Source: a virus | Direction: 5' to 3' (one strand) | DNA: 64,000 nt | Virus genome (UHGV): UHGV-1550212 | Shown: positions 4,875-64,000 of the stretch, in pieces | Layout of the letters: every line of letters starts with the position of its first letter | Position numbering within the stretch: the stretch's first letter is position 1 | The notes under the pieces: model-generated | Told to the model about the DNA's origin: nothing | Database searches by the model: none | What the model saw: only the letters and a program-made list of their open reading frames with translations | Program-made: the position numbers and the translations under genes

Positions 4875-6365
4875 TTATGCCTTTTTAGATTTGCGCTTTG
4901 CGGCAACTACGACTTCTGCTACGATAGCTTCTACAGTAGCTTCAGTTACAACAGACTTGTCTGCAACTTTTACAAGAGCTGCATGCAACTTGTAGTTGCC
5001 GACTTTGCTGAAAGTGCACTTGAATTCTGTTGTTGCGTTGTATTCTGCAGGTACTGCAAAACCACTGTCAGGACCCCATACACCAGTGTCTTCAAATGTC
5101 CAAGACTGTCCTTGTGAATCTGTTGCAGCGAATGTCACATGACCATCTTCAGGTGCTTCTACAATTTCATATTGCAGCTGAACGCCATCAACACCTGCTT
5201 TACCAACGACTTCAGTTGCAAGTGTTGCATTGATTGCAACTTCTGTTGTAGGCTGAATACTTGCAGGGACATCTACAGAAATCTTGTATTCTGACACTTC
5301 AGGCTGAACTGGCTCAGCAACAACTACTGTAGACTCTGCTTCAACAACTACACTGTCATCAGCAACCTTGGCAAGAACTGCATGCAACTTGTATGCGCCT
5401 GCCTTGCTAAAGATTACAGTGAACTTTGTAGTTGCATTGTATTCTGCTGGAATGTCAAAGCCTACTGCAGGACCCCAAGTTCCATTATCGACGAATGTGT
5501 ATTCATTGCCAGTTGTGTCAGTAGCCTTGAATGTCACATGACCATCTTCAGGTGCTACGTCCACGCCATAACGGAACTGAACTTTGTCAACGCCGACGTC
5601 GCCAACAGTCTTCGTTTTGAATGTTGCATCAAGCTCAACTTCAGTGTTTTCGATTATTGTTTCAGGTGCAGACATTTCGAACTCGTACTCAGACACTGTT
5701 TGTGCAGCTTGTTCAAGTTTGATGTTCTTTGTCTTGTTTGAACTCATAGTCTCACGACCAGCATGGCTAATGTAGCCCTCTTTAGACACTTCCCATACAA
5801 TTTCTTCGCCTGACAAAACAGTCAACGAATTGCGAACTTCGCCATTCATCTTGATAACTGCATCTGCAGGTTCTACATTAATTGTCAGTGTAGCTTTGCT
5901 AAGCTTAACAAGCTCCACTACTTGAATGACATCATGATTTGTGAGCGTGATTGTGCCCTCCTGAGATTCATAGCCCTCTTTCGACACTTCCCACTTAATT
6001 GGAATGCCTGCGGGCACATTCTCAAGCATCTTTGTAGCCTCACCATTGATTTCTACATGAGCATCTTCAGGCACTGGCTGAATTGTGATGCTGAACTTGT
6101 CTTTACCAGGTTCAGGGTCTGGTCCGGGTCCTGGGTCATCACCAGTAATTGCAGGGATGATAGTGTTTTCGATGACTTTCTGAGCTTCTGCAGTTGTGCC
6201 ATAGAATTTGAGAGTTTTCTTGGCTTCTTCTACAGACATCTTCTCAAGATTATCTGCAAGATATGTCAGACCAGTGACTGCAGCAATTTTCTGCCGCATT
6301 TCTGGGCTAATGACTACACCAGTAGATTTGACTACTGGAGCAGCTTGTTTTTGTTTCTTTGCCAT
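4875..6365 (-). CDS. protein with tandem internal beta-sandwich-like (Ig-like?) repeats
   Basis: Two ~125-aa near-duplicate blocks (VAPEDGHVTFKATD...PAEYNATTKF / VEAPEDGHVTFAATD...PAEYNATTEF) plus shorter WEVSKEGY repeats; start moved to in-frame ATG (MAKKQKQ) at 6365. Confidence 0.55.
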   Translation of the reverse strand: MAKKQKQAAPVVKSTGVVISPEMRQKIAAVTGLTYLADNLEKMSVEEAKKTLKFYGTTAEAQKVIENTIIPAITGDDPGPGPDPEPGKDKFSITIQPVPEDAHVEINGEATKMLENVPAGIPIKWEVSKEGYESQEGTITLTNHDVIQVVELVKLSKATLTINVEPADAVIKMNGEVRNSLTVLSGEEIVWEVSKEGYISHAGRETMSSNKTKNIKLEQAAQTVSEYEFEMSAPETIIENTEVELDATFKTKTVGDVGVDKVQFRYGVDVAPEDGHVTFKATDTTGNEYTFVDNGTWGPAVGFDIPAEYNATTKFTVIFSKAGAYKLHAVLAKVADDSVVVEAESTVVVAEPVQPEVSEYKISVDVPASIQPTTEVAINATLATEVVGKAGVDGVQLQYEIVEAPEDGHVTFAATDSQGQSWTFEDTGVWGPDSGFAVPAEYNATTEFKCTFSKVGNYKLHAALVKVADKSVVTEATVEAIVAEVVVAAKRKSKKA

Positions 6366-6452
6366 AAGATATTGTGAATTTGGTTGTTTATTCTTAACAA
6401 AATATGTACATACAGATGCAACAGATGATATGTCAGATACACAAAGCTGCAT

Positions 6453-6494
6453 AAAATGACCAGACTTGCAAATAAATTTAAGCAAGTCTGGTCA
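6453..6494 (-). terminator. intrinsic terminator
   Basis: 13-bp stem TGACCAGACTTGC/GCAAGTCTGGTCA, 12-nt loop, U-tract on minus strand; just downstream of the polymerase C-terminal ORF. Confidence 0.6.
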
Positions 6495-20375: not shown

Positions 20376-20933
20376 CTACGGTATGATGTTGAAATTGACT
20401 GCAAGCAACAATGATGTGACATCTTCGCCCAATGGAAATGAACCTGTAGTAAAACCAACTGTTTTTGTTTGTGTATATTGGCTGCTCAAATCGAAGTAGT
20501 ATTGTGATGGCGACAATTCTGGTGTAGCATGCGGCTCAGTTTGACCATTTCGAACAACCATCAATCGTACTGGACCATTGAATGTTGCTTTATGATTCGG
20601 CAATGCAGAACCGTTGTAGTTAAGCGACATGTATTGCATCGTAATTCGAATCTGCTCAGCATATGATTTGCTAAGGTCAAGTTGCTGAGTGCCTTGAACA
20701 CGTAGAATACTTGATTGTCCAGATGACTGCCAATTTGCATACACAGATTGCTCGTTGGTCGTTATGATGGCATTGCCATCAATATCGAGTAGTTCAACAG
20801 TCATCTGACCTGTCAAGCTGATTCGATTGCCAAGATTGTTGCCTACTACTGCAATGCTAACTGAAACGGGCTTCAAAGACCCCCCCTGCGCCACATTTTG
20901 TGAACGATAGTGGTCTTGTGTAACTGTTGACAT
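20376..20933 (-). CDS. hypothetical protein with 5' poly-G tract (paralog 1)
   Basis: Track start is a TTG; first ATG at 20933 gives MSTVTQDHYRSQNVAQGGS; a G7 run (coding strand) at 20880-20886 encodes the Gly-Gly. Confidence 0.5.
   Translation of the reverse strand: MSTVTQDHYRSQNVAQGGSLKPVSVSIAVVGNNLGNRISLTGQMTVELLDIDGNAIITTNEQSVYANWQSSGQSSILRVQGTQQLDLSKSYAEQIRITMQYMSLNYNGSALPNHKATFNGPVRLMVVRNGQTEPHATPELSPSQYYFDLSSQYTQTKTVGFTTGSFPLGEDVTSLLLAVNFNIIP
20880..20886 (-). repeat. homopolymeric G7 tract (coding strand) in 5' coding region
   Basis: C7 on plus strand; codons for Gly-Gly at residues 16-17 of 20376..20933. Confidence 0.8.
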
Positions 20934-20980: not shown

Positions 20981-21352
20981 TCAGTTAAATAATGTTTGAA
21001 TTTTTATTGTAACGTCATTGCAGCCTTTTAGCAAGTCGACTTGAATCATATCGACAAATGCTGAACGATAACTTAAACCATTGCTGTACTGAACGTAAAA
21101 GTACTTGATATGCTCCCAATCATTTACGCAAGCTTTCGTAAAGTTATCTGACAACTGAATGCTTGTTGCTGATAGAGTCGTACATGCAACGTACGAATCA
21201 ACAAATATATGCAAGTCATTTACATTGATGTAACCAACGACATCAAGTTGATTTGTAAACGTGCTCAGCGGCAATGTCAGTATGATGTGGCCTAACTTAA
21301 CAGAGCCCCCCGCGTTTTGTGAACGATAGTGGTCTTGAGTAACGTGTGACAT
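20981..21352 (-). CDS. hypothetical protein with 5' poly-G tract (paralog 2)
   Basis: ATG at 21352 gives MSHVTQDHYRSQNAGGS; G6 run at 21306-21311; 5' nucleotides near-identical to 20376..20933. Confidence 0.5.
   Translation of the reverse strand: MSHVTQDHYRSQNAGGSVKLGHIILTLPLSTFTNQLDVVGYINVNDLHIFVDSYVACTTLSATSIQLSDNFTKACVNDWEHIKYFYVQYSNGLSYRSAFVDMIQVDLLKGCNDVTIKIQTLFN
21306..21311 (-). repeat. homopolymeric G6 tract (coding strand) in 5' coding region
   Basis: C6 on plus strand; residues 15-16 of 20981..21352. Confidence 0.8.
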
Positions 21353-39818: not shown

Positions 39819-40155
39819 GCATTTTGATGATTGCATCTATCACAGTTTCACTGAGCAAGTAGTAGACAACGCTTATCAGCAATGATATCAGTACTGCAGC
39901 TGTGATAAATTGCAACGCATTCACAATTGCACGCACAAATGTTATCTGCGTGTTGTATGCAAGCACTATGCAGCATAGCACAATAATGACACACCAGACT
40001 ACAATTGCATATGCAGGCATCAATGAATTTGTCCATATGCAGTACAATACAGTAATTAGCATCAAAAATGCTATTGCTCTGATAACTGACACAATGATGT
40101 CTATGTAAGGCTTCATTGCACGCAAATGAACTCTTGGTTTATGTTGCTTCATCAT
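39808..40155 (-). CDS. multi-pass membrane protein
   Basis: 115 aa, highly hydrophobic. Confidence 0.5.
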   Translation of the reverse strand: MMKQHKPRVHLRAMKPYIDIIVSVIRAIAFLMLITVLYCIWTNSLMPAYAIVVWCVIIVLCCIVLAYNTQITFVRAIVNALQFITAAVLISLLISVVYYLLSETVIDAIIKMLAK

Positions 40156-41390
40156 GACTTTATGTACAATTCTGCAAGTTGTCTGGTGTACAGTCGTGGA
40201 TTATGATATGCTTTCCAATACGCAGTAGACTTTATTGCAGCAAGAATTTCATCATAATGTTTGACTGCTTCTGCTACAACTTCATCAAGCACGCTCAAAT
40301 CTTCTACACTGACAAGCAACCATTTTTCTACAATATCAATGAACTCCTGATTGCAATTGAAGCCATACTTGTAGTTGCAAGTATCAAGTACAAGTGGAAT
40401 GCAATCATTTGTCAATGCTTCAAAAAATCTACGAAGACTGAAACAATTCTCATCATATGATGGAATGCTCAATGTAAACTTGGCAGTCTTGATGAGTTGC
40501 AAATACTCTTCGTATGGAATCAGAGGACCATTGTGCTTCCATTGATTATTGTGTCGTCTTGTCGTGTACTTGAACAAAAACTTTGAATTGTCAAGTTCAC
40601 AAAGATGGTCCATGCGTAAAATGTAGTTATAGCGGTCTCTTCTGTCAGGCCAACTGTCAGTCATCGCAAACACAAAGTCTCTTTGCTTGTCACATTTTGC
40701 TGACATACCTCTATGCTGACACATGCAATACCAATATTGCTGCGATGGGCTGAACTCAAACTTTGAATGATGCTCACTTCCATCTTTGCATTGCTGAACA
40801 TAAATGTTGTCAGGCACAAAGTGAAAATAAAAGTGTCGAATTTGCAAGTCATTGATGTAGTCAAGCTTATGCTGCAATGGGTCTTCACAGAAATTGTAAC
40901 ACTGAATATGCTTTGCTGCTGCGTACTCAGCAACTATGAACGTGCACATCCATTGCAATGCAATATCTTCACTCTTCAAAAAGTTTACAAGCGGCTCATT
41001 TGGATGCGCTTTGCATTCATTGAACATTTTGTACCACTTGCATTGCTCCATATCGTACTTTGATACTGTATTGCCATTAAAGAACGACACAGTGTCAATT
41101 TTGAATGCATCAAGTTGTTTATGCACAATGTCAAGTGCTTGTGCGTATGTGATTGTCTCATCAGACATTATCTGCGCAAACTTGATTGGATGCGCATGCA
41201 AATTTGCGATAGTGTCTGCCGACATTTTACGCTGTGTGTGATAATCGACATACAAAAACTGACACTTGTCTGTAAGCAATTCAAGCATTGCTACAGATTT
41301 CCATCGAATTGCTTGAAAGAAATTGAAGTGTGCAGTTTGAAAGATGAGATGCGTAGGTTTATCAGAATGAGTCAAAGTTTGCATGGACAA
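40152..41390 (-). CDS. putative glycosyltransferase-like protein (cassette copy A1)
   Basis: Paralog of 44432..45988 (shared EDPLQHKL, PSQQYWY, FTLSIPSYDENCFSLRRFFEAL...CIPLV); the last block resembles a GT-B C-terminal motif. Confidence 0.4.
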   Translation of the reverse strand: MSMQTLTHSDKPTHLIFQTAHFNFFQAIRWKSVAMLELLTDKCQFLYVDYHTQRKMSADTIANLHAHPIKFAQIMSDETITYAQALDIVHKQLDAFKIDTVSFFNGNTVSKYDMEQCKWYKMFNECKAHPNEPLVNFLKSEDIALQWMCTFIVAEYAAAKHIQCYNFCEDPLQHKLDYINDLQIRHFYFHFVPDNIYVQQCKDGSEHHSKFEFSPSQQYWYCMCQHRGMSAKCDKQRDFVFAMTDSWPDRRDRYNYILRMDHLCELDNSKFLFKYTTRRHNNQWKHNGPLIPYEEYLQLIKTAKFTLSIPSYDENCFSLRRFFEALTNDCIPLVLDTCNYKYGFNCNQEFIDIVEKWLLVSVEDLSVLDEVVAEAVKHYDEILAAIKSTAYWKAYHNPRLYTRQLAELYIKS

Positions 41391-44411: not shown

Positions 44412-44440
44412 ACAGTACAACGTAGTTATGCTCATTGCAC
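44412..44440 (-). promoter_or_regulatory. weak sigma70-like promoter (GTGCAA-N17-TACTGT)
   Basis: Upstream of the dNMP kinase gene; -10 is a poor match. Confidence 0.3.
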
Positions 44441-45988
44441 TTCTACGAATGGCTCTTTCAACACAAAGCTGTCACCATTGCAACATGCGGCTGAGCCATC
44501 GTCTGCATCAAGTGCACATGACATATCAGACTTGCAGAACTTGCAATATAAACATGACCATGCATGACTCATGAAGTTGTTTGCTTCACAAATTGCGCAA
44601 CGCTCATGCATAAGTGCATTGTCGCAATTATCACAAGACTTCTTGATTGGCACAGTTTTGTTGATGTATGCAAGATGCAATGCAATATCATACACAAAGT
44701 CACCCGTATATTGCTGAATGAAATCAGTATGCCACAACTCTTTTAACAATTGTGCATGTCTATATGGCTGAACAATGTCTTCAAGATGCTGCAAGTCATC
44801 ATCGCTAACCATGAGCTTCTTAATGACAAATTGTTTGAACTGTGGCCATCTGTCAAACATATAGAGTTTGCATGAGTTGTGCACAAGTGGAACACAGCCA
44901 AGCACAATGCTTTCACAGAATCTACGCAAACTAAAACAGTTTGCATCATATGACGGCACAATCAATGTGAATCTGCTATGCTTGATGAGTTCAAGGTATG
45001 TGTCATATGGCAGTAGCTTATCTGACAATTGCTGTTGTTGTTTGTCTCTGCTGAAAAATCTGAACACAATACCCTTGTCAATTGCATCTTGATTGTGCAG
45101 ATGCATGAGTTTGTTGATGAGTTCTGTGCGTTCAGTTTTGTCTCGCCAAGTATTCGTCAATGCAAATGCAAAATTCAGTCGCTTGTCATCAAACGTCGCT
45201 TCAATATCATTCCAAGTTTTGTCATGCAAATACCAGTATTGCTGTGATGGGCACCATCCATAATATGCAATAGCATCTTGTTCTGCTGTAACGTCATACA
45301 CATATGCAGAATTGTATTCAAGGCCAAGCCTTTTGACGTTGTTGCAGTCATGAAAGTACCAATGCTGCACTTTGAATATCTTTGATGCACTGAATGCGCT
45401 TTCATATGGCCCTGAATAGCGATAGTCAATGTAATTGAGCTTGTGCTGCAATGGGTCTTCGACAAAGTTGTTTATGACTGTGCCTTGTTGTTTGCCCTTA
45501 GTCTTGCGAGCATTCAATGCAACATTGTATTGCATGATGACTGACAGCATCTCATACACTACATACATGAGTGCTTTGTAGACTGAGCCTGCTGCGTCAA
45601 TTAGTGGCAAATCACGTTTGACTGATGTAGCGCCAAATGTCTTGCAATATGCAGAAAATGTGTCAAGTTCTGCTTGCTGAAATGAATTGCATGCACCATT
45701 GAATATGTTGAATGTTGCAATGTAGCTCATATTGCAAGATGTCATTGACATATCAAGACGCTTCATAATGTCGACAATGCGACATTGAGCAAAATCTGAC
45801 ACATCAACATATTTGACATGATGGCCTGATGTAGTCAAGCCATCTGCGACATCTTTCATCTGTGGCACAAAGCCTACAACAATGAATAAGTCATCTTTGT
45901 TTGCTCGTTCAAACATTGCTGCACTTTTCCAAGTCAATGAATTGAAAAAGTCTATGTAGCCAGTTTGAGTGATTATATGCGTTCTCAT
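44432..45988 (-). CDS. putative glycosyltransferase-like protein (cassette copy A2) with Cys-rich C-terminal extension
   Basis: Paralog of 40152..41390 (EDPLQHKLNY, PSQQYWY, FTLIVPSYDANCFSLRRFCESIVLGCVPLV); extra CDNCDN...C cluster. Confidence 0.4.
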   Translation of the reverse strand: MRTHIITQTGYIDFFNSLTWKSAAMFERANKDDLFIVVGFVPQMKDVADGLTTSGHHVKYVDVSDFAQCRIVDIMKRLDMSMTSCNMSYIATFNIFNGACNSFQQAELDTFSAYCKTFGATSVKRDLPLIDAAGSVYKALMYVVYEMLSVIMQYNVALNARKTKGKQQGTVINNFVEDPLQHKLNYIDYRYSGPYESAFSASKIFKVQHWYFHDCNNVKRLGLEYNSAYVYDVTAEQDAIAYYGWCPSQQYWYLHDKTWNDIEATFDDKRLNFAFALTNTWRDKTERTELINKLMHLHNQDAIDKGIVFRFFSRDKQQQQLSDKLLPYDTYLELIKHSRFTLIVPSYDANCFSLRRFCESIVLGCVPLVHNSCKLYMFDRWPQFKQFVIKKLMVSDDDLQHLEDIVQPYRHAQLLKELWHTDFIQQYTGDFVYDIALHLAYINKTVPIKKSCDNCDNALMHERCAICEANNFMSHAWSCLYCKFCKSDMSCALDADDGSAACCNGDSFVLKEPFVEVQ

Positions 45989-56967: not shown

Positions 56968-57719
56968 TTCACTTCAGGTTTTGCTTGCTTGGCCAACTCA
57001 GCTTCAGCATTGAACTCTTTGCCCTCAGCTTTCATTGTTTCAGCATAAGTCTTTTCATCAGTGTAACGTTCTACGCCATCACCAAGCAGTTTTGCAACTT
57101 CATCATCTGCTTCAAACAATGGCTGTGGATTGTCATCATTGTCATCTTTGAGTTGCTCAAATGTGCTGTTATGCTTTTCTGCAATTTTGATGAGGTCAAC
57201 GATTGAACGAGTTACGAGTTCACCATTGATGCCTGACTGTTGTTCAGATTGACCAGTGCCTTGTTGCAATTCTGCTTGAGTTGCTCGAACATTATTATTG
57301 AGTGATGCAAGTACATTGGGAAGAGTTCGACAATATGATATATATTGCTGAACCAACGACATTGCATCATTCTGCAGTTTGATGAGAAACGCAAACTCAC
57401 CCATGCCTCCGCCTTGTGCATCAATGCGCTCGAATACTGAATCAAGTGCATGCATTGCATAGAACACTTGTTTGCAAAGTAAATTGATGTTTGTCTTCTC
57501 CATCTCAATTGATGCATCGATAAATGGCGACTTAACATCTGCTGCTATGCACAATTTGCGAACTTCATCAACGTATTTTGAACACTTGTCAAGTGTCTTG
57601 TCAAGTTTGCTTCGGTCAAACTGCTTGTAAACTTCTAACGCATCGCTTACTTCTGCAGCATCCAATATTGCATTTGCTGCAGCCAATTCTGATTCTCTGC
57701 TCATCTCAAAATGGTCCAA
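56964..57719 (-). CDS. hypothetical acidic protein
   Basis: 251-aa ORF with ATGA overlap to the upstream gene. Confidence 0.45.
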   Translation of the reverse strand: MDHFEMSRESELAAANAILDAAEVSDALEVYKQFDRSKLDKTLDKCSKYVDEVRKLCIAADVKSPFIDASIEMEKTNINLLCKQVFYAMHALDSVFERIDAQGGGMGEFAFLIKLQNDAMSLVQQYISYCRTLPNVLASLNNNVRATQAELQQGTGQSEQQSGINGELVTRSIVDLIKIAEKHNSTFEQLKDDNDDNPQPLFEADDEVAKLLGDGVERYTDEKTYAETMKAEGKEFNAEAELAKQAKPEVK

Positions 57720-58315
57720 GCTTCAATAATTGCTGAAAAATCTTCAAATGACATCGTAGTATAGCCTGCGTCGCCCCAAGATACACCCCAGCTATTCTTG
57801 ATGATGAATGCGTCTTTTGTGTAGCCCACAATTGACACTGCATGACCACCAAAATTACCATCGCCTTTCCAGAAATGCTCAGCTTCAATGTCTTTTACGA
57901 GCATGCCAACAAATACAGGCCCATTTGCCACAACAGCAGATTTGACTTCATCAATTGTGTAACAACGTCTATATGCAGTTATTGGCAATTGCTCTGAGCC
58001 CTTTGACATCTTGATTGGCTGCGCTTTGAGCAACTTAAAGACGTCACGTGGAATCATGCCCTCTTGAGGCGCATTTGAACGACGCTCATACAATGCTTTG
58101 ATGTCAAGCTTGCCTTGCATAGACAGCACAGAAGACCACCAGTCAATCATTGTTGCTGCTGTGTAAGCTGCACACATTGATGTACTGCCTTGGTCTTCTA
58201 CTTGAAGTTGAGCCAACTTGTACACAAGTGGCAAATCAGTTTTTGCATCAAAACGCAAGTCTCTGTCATCTTTAGGTGACTGGATGTAGCCCAGTCCATA
58301 TGTTGTATGTTTCAT
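57701..58315 (-). CDS. papain-like (C1 family) cysteine peptidase
   Basis: Catalytic-triad contexts QGSTSMCAAY (Cys), GGHAVSIVGY (His), IKNSWGVSWGDAGY (Asn-Ser-Trp). Confidence 0.65.
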   Translation of the reverse strand: MKHTTYGLGYIQSPKDDRDLRFDAKTDLPLVYKLAQLQVEDQGSTSMCAAYTAATMIDWWSSVLSMQGKLDIKALYERRSNAPQEGMIPRDVFKLLKAQPIKMSKGSEQLPITAYRRCYTIDEVKSAVVANGPVFVGMLVKDIEAEHFWKGDGNFGGHAVSIVGYTKDAFIIKNSWGVSWGDAGYTTMSFEDFSAIIEAWTILR

Positions 58316-59972: not shown

Positions 59973-60263
59973 TTATGCTCGTACGAGTTTGATGACACAG
60001 TGCCGACAAGCTGCAAAAGTACTCAATATTGTTTCTACTTTGACACTGTACTGCACGTCAATGACACGATATGTGCCACACAATGCAGACATTTCTTGAC
60101 GACGTTCTGCAGGTACATTGACACTGTCTGTCAAATTGATGATTGCGCCAATCTGCATAGATGACATGACTGCAAATTGTTCGGGACCTACTTCTGCTTT
60201 GCGATATGCGACTTGTTTGTTGTTTTCGCAAATGCTGAATGCTACTATATAATCTGGTGTCAT
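59973..60263 (-). CDS. hypothetical small protein
   Basis: 96-aa ORF. Confidence 0.35.
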   Translation of the reverse strand: MTPDYIVAFSICENNKQVAYRKAEVGPEQFAVMSSMQIGAIINLTDSVNVPAERRQEMSALCGTYRVIDVQYSVKVETILSTFAACRHCVIKLVRA

Positions 60264-60275
60264 GATAGTCGCGTT

Positions 60276-60755
60276 TTATTCATTATCGTCATCATATCCT
60301 ATGCAATCTTCAAGACTTGCAAAGTCATCATCAAAGTCATCGAATTCAGGCTCTTTATTGCACCATTTGTAAGGTGGATTGTTGAGCAATTCAAGCTCTA
60401 TTGCATTTGACTGTGCAGAAATCGGAACATATTCGAATGCTTTGACTGACATGTTAAATTTGATACAATGCAGCCACGGAAACATATCAGTGTCCTCATG
60501 CACAATTGGCTGACGAACGTAGTCTTTCATTGCAATGAACTTGCTGCTGTCGTCCCAGTCTTCAATAGGTATTTCAAACTGCGATATGACAGTATGACAG
60601 CTTTCAAAGAAATTGCAGGATACACCTACAATAACATGAGAGTCTGTACGTTGGCGTTCTATTGCAAGAAAGTCATATTTCTTAGAAAGACGAACTTCTC
60701 CATGCTTCTCTAAGAAGATTTTAAGAAGCTCTTTGTTAATGTCGTTGATGTTCAT
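60276..60755 (-). CDS. hypothetical protein with strongly acidic C-terminus
   Basis: 159 aa ending EFDDFDDDFASLEDCIGYDDDNE. Confidence 0.45.
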   Translation of the reverse strand: MNINDINKELLKIFLEKHGEVRLSKKYDFLAIERQRTDSHVIVGVSCNFFESCHTVISQFEIPIEDWDDSSKFIAMKDYVRQPIVHEDTDMFPWLHCIKFNMSVKAFEYVPISAQSNAIELELLNNPPYKWCNKEPEFDDFDDDFASLEDCIGYDDDNE

Positions 60756-60777
60756 TGTTGTAGAGATTTTAAGTTGT

Positions 60778-61089
60778 TTAATGCCGAGTTTTTGCAGATA
60801 TAGCTACTTTAATTGTTGCTTTAATTTGTTCGATTGCATCTTGTGAGAACAATTCTGACACTGCTAAATAGTGATACCATGATGTTGGCGCTGCCTGCAT
60901 ATCAGTTCGTTTAATTGCGAACCGAAGTTCTTTTGGTGAACCAAGGCAACCCATATATTGGCAGCTTATTAGCTTAACTTGCACATTGTTAATGCTGCTA
61001 TGAATAGCAAGATGAGACAGATTTATTCTGTCATAGAATTTTAGATGCTTGAGTTGTTTTTCAATTGCTTTGAATGTGTTTGTGTTCAT
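60778..61089 (-). CDS. hypothetical protein
   Basis: 103-aa ORF with promoter at 61128-61156 and the shared initiation context. Confidence 0.4.
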   Translation of the reverse strand: MNTNTFKAIEKQLKHLKFYDRINLSHLAIHSSINNVQVKLISCQYMGCLGSPKELRFAIKRTDMQAAPTSWYHYLAVSELFSQDAIEQIKATIKVAISAKTRH

Positions 61090-61127
61090 TGTTGTAGAGG
61101 TTTTATATCATATATTGATATATGATA

Positions 61128-61156
61128 ATTATACTACAACAATCATAAATTTGCAC
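61128..61156 (-). promoter_or_regulatory. sigma70-like promoter (GTGCAA-N17-TATAAT)
   Basis: Consensus -10; upstream of 60778..61089, in the divergent region shared with the plus-strand genes. Confidence 0.5.
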
Positions 61157-61255
61157 TAATTTAATATATATAATATGTCAATAAATTTCACATACAAAAG
61201 TCTTTTCGCTTATGAAAACTACTCAACTCTGGTTTGAACGCCAGCAGTCAATCGC

Positions 61256-61262
61256 GGGGGGG
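61256..61262 (+). repeat. homopolymeric G7 tract separating upstream ATG from the main ORF
   Basis: ATG at 61212 and ORF 61280..61912 are in different frames across this tract. Confidence 0.8.
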
Positions 61263-61279
61263 CTCTTCGTGACACAGGC

Positions 61280-61912
61280 GTGCACATATATGTGCGTGAC
61301 AATGCTGATAACATTGTTAATGGGTTAGCTTGCTATTTACACTGTATTGAAACAGGGCGAACACTTCAAAGAGGCTTGTATACAAGCAATAATGGTGATG
61401 GCGTCACATTTTACATAACTGGTGATGACTATAAGCAATTAGTCGGTTCAACAAAAGATGCACAGTTTTATCTTATTGACACACCTGATGCTGCAAATAT
61501 GTCTTGGTTATCTGTAGCATTTACACTTAGATATGGCGCAGATATTGCTAACAACACACTAAATGTCAATATTGAAGCGTTCAAATCATGCGAAGTAACA
61601 ATAACTAACAGTGGCAATACATGCAGTTGCACCGCAATGCTTGAATGCAAGTTGCCAGCGGCAATTAAACTGTCAACAATTTGCAATACATCAGTAGCAT
61701 CTAATGTCAATGTGTCAGTTAATATAACAGCAAATAGCTTGGCTGCTAATTTTAGAGTTGGCAATAGCTTATCTGCAAAATTGACACATGTCGGCATATG
61801 GTCTATTGCTAATGCTTCTTATGTTTCACCAATATATGAGGGCGCTATAATTGTAAGAACACTGTCTGACATATTTCATGTGTTCATAACAGATAATACA
61901 ACACTTGCCTAA
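61280..61912 (+). CDS. hypothetical protein; likely phase-variable (5' ATG at 61212 is out of frame across a G7 tract)
   Basis: Track ORF starts at a GTG; an upstream ATG (61212) reads MKTTQLWFERQQSIAGG through the G7 run at 61256-61262 and stops at 61328; one extra G would fuse it to this ORF. Confidence 0.4.
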   Translation: MHIYVRDNADNIVNGLACYLHCIETGRTLQRGLYTSNNGDGVTFYITGDDYKQLVGSTKDAQFYLIDTPDAANMSWLSVAFTLRYGADIANNTLNVNIEAFKSCEVTITNSGNTCSCTAMLECKLPAAIKLSTICNTSVASNVNVSVNITANSLAANFRVGNSLSAKLTHVGIWSIANASYVSPIYEGAIIVRTLSDIFHVFITDNTTLA

Positions 61913-61937
61913 GTTTTTAACATAAACTCCTCAAATC

Positions 61938-62435
61938 ATGAACATTACAATGAACTGGGGGGGCTCTAAATTAGTCTACCTGCAGCTTGTTATTGGTGAT
62001 GCTTCATTGTACAACTTTGGCACTACTGAAACAATGGCGATACAAGGTACAATATCGCTTGACAATGTGGCAGTTAACATACCAACGTCAGGCTTTCCTA
62101 TCAAAATGATGGAATGCCGCGGTGGTGAAACTTACGCCATTGGTGCGTTAATGATGCCAAAAGCTTATGACTACTCAAACTTTGCTGCAAAAATTGGCTT
62201 TGGCTGTTATGCAGCAGATGGCCGTGGCACCGGCAATATTTACAACATCAATGCGTATGCCAACATCAACAGCACAAGCCCTGGTGGCAATCCTATACTG
62301 TTAACTTCTATGGCATGGCAGTATCCATTGGGTGTTGGTGATAAGTTTACATTGCCAATGTCAAACCCATCTGTCAAAGTTAACAATGGAGATATCGTGT
62401 CAATCATACTTAAGAATGCAAAGAAAGTCAGCTAA
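61938..62435 (+). CDS. hypothetical protein with 5' poly-G tract (in frame)
   Basis: MNITMNWGGS...; G7 run at 61957-61963 in codons 7-9; followed by a plus-strand terminator. Confidence 0.5.
   Translation: MNITMNWGGSKLVYLQLVIGDASLYNFGTTETMAIQGTISLDNVAVNIPTSGFPIKMMECRGGETYAIGALMMPKAYDYSNFAAKIGFGCYAADGRGTGNIYNINAYANINSTSPGGNPILLTSMAWQYPLGVGDKFTLPMSNPSVKVNNGDIVSIILKNAKKVS
61957..61963 (+). repeat. homopolymeric G7 tract in 5' coding region
   Basis: Codons 7-9 (W-G-G) of 61938..62435. Confidence 0.8.
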
Positions 62436-62461
62436 CTGACAAACGCATCACATATAAGCAA

Positions 62462-62495
62462 TGCACCACTGAGATTTCTCAGTGGTGCATTTTTA
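62462..62495 (+). terminator. intrinsic terminator
   Basis: 13-bp stem TGCACCACTGAGA/TCTCAGTGGTGCA with 2-nt loop, followed by TTTTT; downstream of 61938..62435. Confidence 0.65.
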
Positions 62496-62500
62496 TGTTA

Positions 62501-62552
62501 TTTGCAAGTGGAGTTGTCACCCACCTCAGCACAATTTGGCGACCTCATTGAT
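62501..62552. repeat. 52-bp direct repeat, copy 1
   Basis: TTTGCAAGTGGAGTTGTCACCCACCTCAGCACAATTTGGCGACCTCATTGAT; identical except one base to 62586-62637. Confidence 0.75.
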
Positions 62553-62585
62553 GTTAATAAACATCATTCAGTGGTTGATGACTTG

Positions 62586-62637
62586 TTTGCATGTGGAGTT
62601 GTCACCCACCTCAGCACAATTTGGCGACCTCATTGAT
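62586..62637. repeat. 52-bp direct repeat, copy 2
   Basis: TTTGCATGTGGAGTTGTCACCCACCTCAGCACAATTTGGCGACCTCATTGAT; period 85 bp; in the convergent intergenic region 62496-62737. Confidence 0.75.
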
Positions 62638-62737
62638 AGTGCGTTGATGGCGAATTTTACACGACATCTATATACTTTAATGTACCAACCTAAGCATACG
62701 ATGATCTATATGCAAAAGTAAGAATTTTAAGTATTTA

Positions 62738-62771
62738 TACAATAAAAGCGACCCAAATCATTAGGTCGCTT
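62738..62771 (-). terminator. intrinsic terminator
   Basis: 8-bp stem AAGCGACC/GGTCGCTT with 10-nt loop and U-rich tail on the minus strand; downstream of the BNR lipoprotein gene. Confidence 0.5.
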
Positions 62772-62797
62772 CTTATATATTCCACCATTAAAACTGG

Positions 62798-63799
62798 CTA
62801 TTTTGCTGGCACAGCAATTATTCCACTTGGAACAGTTGTTATAATGCCTCCATTTTCATCTTTAACTATTTCTGTGGGTGTCCATGTTTCACCATCTATT
62901 GATGTTGTTATCATATTAACATATTTGGAATAACTATTATTCCAAGAACGGCCGACAGCAATAAACATTTCACCATTATATATGACATCCATCCAATTAC
63001 CATTAACATCTGTGGTGAATTTTGTCCAAGTTTGTCCATCATTGGATGTAAAAATATGCCCGTTAGAACTACTACATACGAATTTACCATTGCCAAACGC
63101 CATTCCATATCCTATAAGCATACTCGACGGTACTGCATATTTTGACCAAGTTGTACCATCAGTAGACACTCCAATATATGTACTACCATTGCCCATTGTA
63201 ACAAACCTGCCATTGCCATACGCAATTGACAACAAACCGTGACTTGAATCAAACCATTTCGGCGTTGTCCAACTTGTCCCATTGGCGGAGGTTGATATAC
63301 GGCCACTACTACCAACCACTACGAATTTACTATTACCGTATGCAATATCAGCCCAATTATATGTAGCAGAGGAATCTACTTTATAAGTTGTCCAATTTGT
63401 ACCATCAGTGGATACTGCGATATAACTATATTGGCCACAGACAACAAATTTTCCATTCGCATATATAATTCCATTCCATGTATAAGAAGAACCTGCTATT
63501 TGTTTCGGCGTTGTCCAATTCACGCCATCGGTTGACGTTGTTACATATCCATTCGCACCAACAGCTACGTATTTTCCATTACCATATGCAATGGCATTCC
63601 AACCATTTGTACCAACTACTGCCATAATGTTTTCTTCGATTTTAATTGTTCTTAAATCTTCGGTCAACGGCGGAGTAGTCGGTTCTTCCGGCTTTTCAAT
63701 AGGTGGTTCTACCGGCTCATCAAATCCCCCCCCGTCATTTTTCTCGCAGGATGCACACATCCAAGCACATACCGCAATGCAAATCATCTTTTTAATCAT
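62798..63799 (-). CDS. BNR/Asp-box repeat (beta-propeller-like) lipoprotein with 5' poly-G tract
   Basis: Lipoprotein-type signal MIKKMICIAVCAWMCASC; six repeats each with S-x-D-G-x-x-W-T (STDGVNWT, STDGTNWT, VSTDGTTWS...); G8 run at 63726-63733 encodes NDGGGF. Confidence 0.6.
   Translation of the reverse strand: MIKKMICIAVCAWMCASCEKNDGGGFDEPVEPPIEKPEEPTTPPLTEDLRTIKIEENIMAVVGTNGWNAIAYGNGKYVAVGANGYVTTSTDGVNWTTPKQIAGSSYTWNGIIYANGKFVVCGQYSYIAVSTDGTNWTTYKVDSSATYNWADIAYGNSKFVVVGSSGRISTSANGTSWTTPKWFDSSHGLLSIAYGNGRFVTMGNGSTYIGVSTDGTTWSKYAVPSSMLIGYGMAFGNGKFVCSSSNGHIFTSNDGQTWTKFTTDVNGNWMDVIYNGEMFIAVGRSWNNSYSKYVNMITTSIDGETWTPTEIVKDENGGIITTVPSGIIAVPAK
63726..63733 (-). repeat. homopolymeric G8 tract (coding strand) in 5' coding region
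   Basis: C8 on plus strand; encodes GGG just after the lipoprotein signal peptide of 62798..63799. Confidence 0.8.
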
Positions 63800-64000
63800 A
63801 ACTGCGTTTTTTAAGGTTTGTATAAATCGACATTAAAAGTAGTCATTTCAGATGATATTGCAAAATCGGAATTTCAGCAATCATTTCGGTTGTACGGTCG
63901 TTTTTACAATCGTGCCCTTTGTTCCGACAATAATTACATCCACAGTTTTTTTCGTCTTGGCTGCATTCTGTGCCCAATACCAAAGTGTCGTTACATTCAT

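Follow-up and report, generated by a model that had tools for sequence, protein, structure and literature searches.

Phase variation through changes in homopolymer length is classical in bacteria. Poly-G switching of the kind considered here has otherwise been reported so far in one phage group only, the Fletchervirus phages of Campylobacter, whose poly-G tracts are hypermutable (Sorensen et al. 2021, Cell Rep 35:109214, as cited in PMC11959909 and PMC12823448), and for a 2025 review (PMC11959909) phages that themselves undergo phase variation are an 'exceptional case', with Fletchervirus as the known instance. Phage T4 offers a second comparison, its internal-protein genes, in which capsid-targeting propeptides of 10–19 residues stand before highly diverse bodies, anti-restriction proteins among them (PMC9026906, PMC3012670). 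Here we analyse a stretch of 64,000 nucleotides of the virus genome UHGV-1550212 (the window, at its full length), and in particular two neighbouring plus-strand genes near its right end, gene 1 (ATG at 61212, stop at 61912) and gene 2 (61938..62435), each of which carries a run of seven Gs close to its 5' end. The comparison of related genomes makes it probable that both are mutational poly-G on/off switches of a common build, a leader, a poly-G tract and a body. Genes of this build number at least five in the window, and at least eleven loci were found across the phage group. The locus indicates that a gut phage lineage which is uncultured and unrelated to Fletchervirus, with genomes of ~175 kb, carries a system of poly-G switches at multiple loci; a tract placed at the joint of a conserved portable leader and a variable body is an organisation that we did not find described in the literature.

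In the mechanism that we propose, a short leader at the N-terminus, read from a good start codon, would be joined to a variable body by a sense-strand run of 6–11 Gs, and slipped-strand mispairing in the course of phage DNA replication would add or remove one G, so that the body enters or leaves the reading frame set by the leader ATG. Gene 1 of the window, with G7, would be OFF, ribosomes that start at 61212 terminating at 61328, and gene 2, with G7 behind a different leader, would be ON. The progeny would contain minorities with different combinations of accessory proteins, that is, a phage-borne bet-hedging (contingency-locus) system. If this is true, gut phage populations could hedge their bets via heritable, reversible subpopulations, which would affect the reading of host range, of phage–bacterium coexistence and of metagenomic 'frameshifted pseudogenes', and gene callers mis-annotate all leader–tract–body genes from internal starts.

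Poly-G tracts between leaders and bodies

The elements of gene 1 are the following.

61199..61211, plus strand: the 13 nt before the start codon (AGTCTTTTCGCTT), part of the repeated leader A cassette; AT-rich, as is typical for the genome
61212..61255, plus strand: leader A coding segment, ATG...GC, 44 nt, encoding MKTTQLWFERQQSIA(GG)
61256..61262, plus strand: G7 tract of gene 1, at the OFF length, codons 15–17; G8 joins leader to body
61212..61328, plus strand: 38-codon product of the G7 state, leader plus out-of-frame tail, TAG stop at 61326–61328
61262..61912, plus strand: gene 1 body in frame 2, ALRDTGVHIYV... to the stop at 61910–61912; an orphan, predicted to be all-beta
61234..61236, plus strand: third-frame TTG, sharing the frame of the body when the tract is G6 or 9 nt long; candidate leaderless start
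61280..61282, plus strand: internal GTG, taken by the ORF caller as the start of a 210-aa ORF; unlikely initiation site

The earlier note on this DNA had proposed that ATG 61212 lies out of the frame of the body and reads through G7 into a stop at 61328, and this is confirmed, the product being 38 aa long. Leader A comprises 17 codons (MKTTQLWFERQQSIAGG), and the long ORF that ends at 61912 lies in the -1 frame relative to its ATG. The ORF is open from just upstream of the tract and holds no start codon between the last upstream stop and GTG 61280. One added G turns the two frames into a 233-aa fusion, MKTTQLWFERQQSIAGGALRDTGVHIYV.... Recoding of the stop codon at 61326–61328 was considered and put aside: readthrough of this TAG soon meets a TAA, and long ORFs are normal under code 11.

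Gene 2 follows directly.

61938..62435, plus strand: gene 2 CDS, 165 aa, an orphan with a probable C-terminal beta-sandwich
61938..61956, plus strand: leader B of gene 2, ATGAACATTACAATGAACT, encoding MNITMNW
61957..61963, plus strand: G7 tract of gene 2, in frame (ON), codons 7–9, TGG GGG GGC
62460..62496, plus strand: intrinsic terminator, a hairpin with perfect 15-nt arms and a T run, closing the gene 1–gene 2 unit

The in-frame G7 of gene 2 and the CTCT after it were likewise as had been claimed, and the same CTCT stands directly 3' of the gene 1 tract. Beyond the terminator, the non-coding stretch that reaches to the 3' end of a lipoprotein gene holds a 55-nt direct repeat in two copies (62498–62552 and 62583–62637), 96% identical and 85 nt apart.

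Start contexts were scored by a position weight matrix (PWM) and by upstream A+T against 54 reference starts in the window. ATG 61212 (41st percentile) and TTG 61234 (43rd) are ordinary by this measure and ATG 61938 of gene 2 is strong (91st). The internal start codons fare badly: ATG 62034 of gene 2 falls at the 2nd percentile, and GTG 61280, with a PWM score of -5.5 and 35% AT in the 20 nt upstream, is poorer than all 54 reference starts.

Selection on the bodies is evident from the relatives. The gene 1 body has homologs in 10 clusters at 82–93% identity, all from gut metagenomes, with a ratio of nonsynonymous to synonymous substitution rates (dN/dS) of 0.30–0.45 among most lineages and of 0.52–1.06 against the L001 lineage, in which an interrupted tract makes its own GTG start (labels in L denote related loci, contigs and lineages). 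For gene 2 the ratio is 0.06–0.16. In the 24 codons from the gene 2 tract to the first internal ATG all six differences among relatives are synonymous, so this segment must be translated in the frame of the body. The orthologs of gene 2 bear a variant of leader A (A') where the gene of the window bears leader B, and homology breaks off exactly at the tract. Gene 2 of the window is ON because its leader differs from that of the orthologs, and not because its tract has another length.

Neither protein gave a match in Pfam or PHROG scans, which also took in the neighbouring proteins. For gene 2, a HMMER search of 1.84 billion representatives returned the orthologs and two weak matches to low-complexity repeat proteins only. 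The AF2 model of gene 1 is unusable (pLDDT 37), and that of gene 2 shows a marginal beta-sandwich (pLDDT 53), for which Foldseek found nothing significant in PDB and BFVD (TM at most 0.34), the matches to folds of tail-fibre tips and of the carbohydrate-binding-module (CBM) kind being insignificant. A C-terminal beta-sandwich in gene 2 is probable from this model.

The distribution of such tracts over the window is not random. About 0.55 runs of seven or more Gs are expected per strand. On the plus strand, runs of at least six Gs are found in gene 1 and gene 2 only, and each of the three runs of at least six Cs is poly-G in the sense of a minus-strand gene, near its 5' end:

62798..63799, minus strand: lipoprotein gene with signal peptide plus Cys and BNR-like repeats; in-frame sense G8 at 63726–63733, just past the lipobox cysteine
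20376..20933, minus strand: leader C gene C2, MSTVTQDHYRSQNVAQGG..., in-frame sense G7 at 20880–20886
20981..21352, minus strand: leader C gene C1, MSHVTQDHYRSQNAGG..., in-frame sense G6 at 21306–21311, then CTCT

All five runs are thus sense poly-G within ~25 codons of a gene start, a placement that exceeds chance: its probability is ~5e-6, or ~2.5e-4 if the tract at 21306–21311 is left out, since the start of that gene (C1) was assigned from the paralogous leader together with the start context. C1 and C2, the latter with a start at the 94th percentile of the reference set, are tandem paralogs within the replication-side gene block and have in common the leader MS(T/H)VTQDHYRSQN, a third leader class; a scan of viral sequences for leader C returned only the window's own genome. 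The lipoprotein may be a phase-variable surface or exclusion protein. Its gene is missing from the same position in most relatives.

The leaders are portable. The leader A cassette consists of the 13 upstream nt, the 44 coding nt, the G run and CTCTTCGTG. Within each genome it stands, nucleotide-identical, before at least three bodies (A1, which is gene 1, A2 and A3), and its 13-nt upstream segment is the same before every copy, in front of three different bodies and across genomes. BLASTP among all tract-associated bodies, gene 1 against gene 2 included, detected no similarity, and the A3 body is completely different between two genomes. Between A' and leader A there are four synonymous changes inside the core W-F-E-R-Q-Q, and nonsynonymous changes lie solely outside it; the leader is therefore translated and constrained as a peptide. 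The tail past the tract in the 38-aa frame, on the other hand, varies among A1, A2 and A3 and is therefore not a conserved peptide. Relatives of leader B (MNNTMNW) front other poly-G genes in related genomes, for example in L074. Given the exchange of leaders and the break of homology at the tract, the tract is both a frame switch and a joint of exchangeable modules. At all eleven distinct tract loci of the group the run consists of sense-strand Gs, whichever DNA strand carries the gene.

A scan of metagenomes for leader A added three loci only. A protein search with a 40-aa query that contains the leader found no representative of a 90% cluster with the leader in frame, a result of limited reach, the ON forms being non-representative members.

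Double-glycine leaders of the bacteriocin type have the consensus LSxxELxxIxGG. Leader A was considered as one of them and rejected: its GG simply results from translating the G run, while the residues at -7/-8 (Q, R) are off consensus. The only C39-like match is a sub-threshold one, with no exporter, in a protease encoded at 57701–58315 (minus strand). This 204-aa papain-family cysteine protease (Peptidase_C1, E = 2e-10) lies a few kb from the leader-bearing genes and is kept in all relatives.

Tract length among related phages

About 30 related loci were gathered and every tract was tabulated. The lengths found, and those at which the leader is in frame with the body, are listed below.

Gene 1 (A1): G6 (L073), G7 (the window and at least six other lineages), G8 (L072), G6TGG (L001–4); in frame only at G8
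Paralog A2: G6, G7, GGGGAGGG (L082/83); in frame only as GGGGAGGG
Gene 2 with leader A': G7, G8, A+G7 (L005); never in frame, G6 or G9 being needed, or G8 in L005
Gene 2 of the window, with leader B: G7; in frame
Locus B1: G7, G8, G9, G10, G11; in frame only at G9

The prediction of the earlier note that G8 would fuse ATG 61212 to the ORF is borne out in nature: L072 has a gene 1 tract of G8, and the protein that it encodes there (P0039) is the 233-aa fusion just as predicted. In the other direction, the product of the G6 allele of L073 (P0034, MNASSQSRGALRD...) and a further protein, P0042, were both called from TTG 61234. The 8-nt A2 allele GGGGAGGG is in frame and is called in L082 as a 259-aa leader–body fusion; by its sequence it would amount to an interrupted, 'locked ON' allele.

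The same tracts also differ where nothing else does. In three independent cases, contigs from different samples with no mismatches over 0.6–3.8 kb differ by an indel of one G in a tract, and among such near-identical pairs a T5 indel is the sole further difference. This is a signature of tracts that appear to mutate much faster than their surroundings. At the sequence level the loci show the marks of contingency loci, namely a homopolymer in the 5' part of the coding region, length variation with unchanged flanks and a toggle between full-length and truncated products.

Taken as a whole, the original observation is confirmed and its interpretation by tract-length switching is, as far as genome comparison can tell, largely supported. 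The expected variation exists (G6, G7 and G8 at gene 1, G7 and G8 at gene 2, partly between otherwise identical contigs), and translation from GTG 61280 with tracts of constant length, named in the earlier note as the contrary finding, is not what we see, since the lengths are heterogeneous and this GTG has the worst context of all. As to the view of the earlier note that an OFF/ON pair is what tract-length switching predicts, the two states and the length variation stand, but gene 2 is ON by a swap of leaders. Two further refinements are needed: the switch is one of many in this phage, and natural genomes seldom have gene 1 ON.

Several observations on the assemblies concern the same region. 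The short contigs L075, L076 and L077 start or stop exactly at poly-G tracts, which suggests assembly breaks caused by heterogeneity. The last 27 positions of L077 (2277–2303) are all G and lie 2 nt ahead of the C-tract position of its relatives; this is most likely an artefact of sequencing or assembly and calls for caution with short low-coverage contigs. Gene content 3' of gene 2 varies among relatives (window 62436–64000; L001 3650–6648; L005; L074), the region being hyperplastic, and the large scaffolds L003, L004, L072 and L074 end in it. The T5 tract at L001 2792, in the homolog of window 60276–60755 (minus strand), differs from that of L003 by a single T, which makes the difference between a called gene of 84 aa and one of 159 aa; poly-G is therefore not the sole varying homopolymer. 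At L001 6236–6264 (minus strand) a start of the leader B type (MTFKLNW) and a G run are followed by only 29 codons, with a gene of 135–145 aa beginning ~20 nt later. The tract at this site has G7, G8, G9 or G10 across L001, L005, L006, L030, L067 and L082, and the site may be either a short upstream ORF subject to phase variation or a further site of frameshifting.

Switching and its alternatives

A number of points weigh against mutational switching. Tract-length heterogeneity is documented between samples, and frequent, reversible switching within one phage population is presumed. Consensus assemblies hardly ever show a leader A or A' gene in frame: A1 is ON in one of ~9 lineages and gene 2 with leader A' in none of ~12, fewer than random lengths would give, and A2 is ON solely as the interrupted allele. 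Seven Gs make a short run for a tract of high mutability. Some of the contigs that vary only in tract length have 3–5x coverage, which leaves room for assembly error in individual cases. Interrupted tracts (G6TGG, GGGTGGG, GGGGAGGG) indicate that some lineages are past the switching regime. Finally, DNA slippage alone does not require the bias to sense-strand G in all tracts, which could stem from the coding side, Gly-Gly being tolerated rather than Pro-Pro, or from a mechanism at the RNA level.

Puzzling, too, is the purifying selection on the bodies, given that behind leader A or A' they nearly always lie out of frame in the consensus. The ON variants may be minorities selected only episodically, as is typical of contingency loci; alternatively, -1 ribosomal slippage on G GGG GGG, or stuttering of the polymerase, may yield a certain amount of product. 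Switching would presumably take place in DNA, during replication, and we infer that it is adaptive.

The main rival is constitutive recoding at the RNA level, in which G7 would be the functional, selected length and the ribosome would slip by -1 on the heptamer G GGG GGG, or RNA polymerase would stutter on the G run, so that in either case part of the product would at all times be the leader–body fusion. Such a heptamer does lie in phase at gene 1, with the zero-frame codons GGG GGG at 61257–61262. G7 is the majority state of A1 in at least six diverged lineages and occurs also at A2 and A3, the body being always in the -1 frame; the restriction of the tracts to sense-strand G irrespective of the DNA strand, and the purifying selection on bodies despite an out-of-frame consensus, would also be accounted for. 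The heptamer, however, is not conserved, alleles with G6, G8, G6TGG, GGGTGGG and GGGGAGGG being known, and no tract is followed by a stable structure (fold z-scores from -1.2 to +1.0), the sequences past CTCTTCGTG varying between paralogs. Moreover, the gene 2 orthologs with G7 require a shift by +1 and not by -1, so that the direction varies among loci, and the natural G8 allele encodes the fusion directly. We therefore hold it unlikely that recoding explains the locus, and it may nevertheless act as a mechanism additional to switching at the tract.

A simpler possibility is that the tract is irrelevant to gene 1, which would encode a 210-aa protein from GTG 61280, ATG 61212 belonging to a separate short upstream ORF. 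All gene callers choose internal starts for the body, the GTG is replaced by ATG in L066, L072 and L082–84, and the dN/dS of gene 1 is below 1 despite the G7 consensus. Against this stand the upstream context of GTG 61280, below that of every reference start; the reuse on unrelated bodies of a leader that is conserved as a peptide before the tract, whereas the tail after it is not; the purifying selection on the codons of gene 2 upstream of its first internal ATG; and the in-frame fusions found in nature (P0039 and the 259-aa protein of L082). This explanation is quite improbable.

It is hardly credible that the length differences are homopolymer errors of sequencing or assembly and that gene 1, being out of frame, is artefactual or a pseudogene in decay. 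In favour are the 3–5x coverage of some variant contigs, the artificial G27 run at the end of one contig and a dN/dS of gene 1 that nears 1 in the comparison with the L001 lineage. Yet independent assemblies of many samples show the same G7, among them a contig at 110x (L005) and scaffolds of 175–181 kb; the window is identical to an IMG/VR contig over 11.7 kb; and errors would neither put every tract on the sense strand at gene 5' ends nor keep the leader peptide and a gene 2 dN/dS of ~0.1.

Genomic setting and relation to known systems

The window shares its final 11.7 kb, without any difference, with the 174.6-kb IMG/VR contig UViG_3300045988_152288, and the relatives are gut-metagenome contigs of 175–181 kb. 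A blastn search with 60000–64000 gave no match among 50,697 phage records. The minus strand carries a replication module with DNA polymerase, helicases, an SbcC-like protein and a gp32-like single-stranded DNA-binding protein. The nearest polymerases are those of jumbo phages of Chryseobacterium (36% identity) and Tenacibaculum (29%); T4-like phages come next, and by these sequence relationships the phage, of ~175 kb, appears to be a distant member of the T4 superfamily. The start sites in the window have A/T-rich upstream regions with no Shine-Dalgarno motifs, and the lipoprotein bears a signal of the Bacteroidota style; a Bacteroidota host is therefore likely. The G+C content of the window is 40.4%. 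Among the other genes, a structural protein with head-fibre dimeric domains (E = 6e-21) and a PEGA domain (4875–6485, minus strand) adjoins the replication genes, and two proteins (40152–41390 and 44432–45988, minus strand) have weak matches of the exostosin/GT47 glycosyltransferase type, below the Pfam cut-off, which might indicate a role in the glycosylation of DNA or of surfaces.

What the leaders do may be approached through T4. Examination of the T4 genome showed that ipII and ipIII share aaaggaaacatATGAAAACATATCAAGAATTTATTGCCGAAGC (MKTYQEFIAE) and an identical upstream region, and that ipI starts with MKTFKEF. As with leader A, a short N-terminal leader, nucleotide-identical together with its upstream region, is thus placed before unrelated, fast-evolving bodies. 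The two leaders (MKTTQLWFER in leader A) share only M-K-T-x-Q and an aromatic residue at position 7; unlike the T4 capsid targeting sequence, leader A lacks the L/I-x-E cleavage motif, having WFE instead, and the T4 cassettes, unlike leader A, contain no homopolymer. The likeness is an analogy, and as a hypothesis it is unproven. It is conceivable, though doubtful, that the leaders are sorting signals of this type and that the set of proteins packaged into the virion (and ejected) is phase-variable. Leader A would then have three states, G8 giving a tagged protein, G6 or a 9-nt tract a leaderless one from TTG 61234, and G7 none. The leader, the G run and CTCT would serve as a recombination joint by which leaders and bodies are shuffled among loci and genomes. 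The outcome would be a combinatorial and stochastic diversity of accessory proteins, possibly anti-defence or host-range proteins.

Sites of programmed -1 frameshifting, such as dnaX and the G/GT tail chaperones of phages, resemble the G7 tract in having an in-phase heptamer X XXY YYZ and a downstream frame of -1. Here the shift point lies at codon 16 rather than near the end of the ORF, with no stimulatory structure. Also unlike at those sites, the heptamer is not conserved among orthologs and the direction of the shift varies among loci.

The closest parallel in phages is Fletchervirus, where, as here, there are several phage-encoded coding poly-G tracts per genome and tract length shifts the frame. 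The Fletchervirus tracts create phenotypically mixed phage populations; for the present phages such switching is proposed from sequence comparison. The present phages differ in being a gut lineage with Bacteroidota-like features and no blastn match to the phage collection, in having their tracts within the first 7–25 codons, directly behind conserved portable leader cassettes, and in the nature of the switched genes, which are small orphans and a lipoprotein in place of identified receptor-binding proteins.

The bacterial contingency loci of Campylobacter, Neisseria and Haemophilus share with the loci of this phage a homopolymer in the 5' coding region, changes by plus or minus one, a multiplicity of loci and a majority-OFF state at several of them. 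In these bacteria slipped-strand mispairing turns translation ON and OFF, and the same would apply here. The phage loci are distinguished by their viral nature and by tracts that are mostly shorter (G6–G8 behind leader A, G7–G11 behind leader B) and consist of sense-strand G in every case. They are further set apart by the position of the switch, since each tract coincides with a recombination breakpoint between a leader module and a body module.

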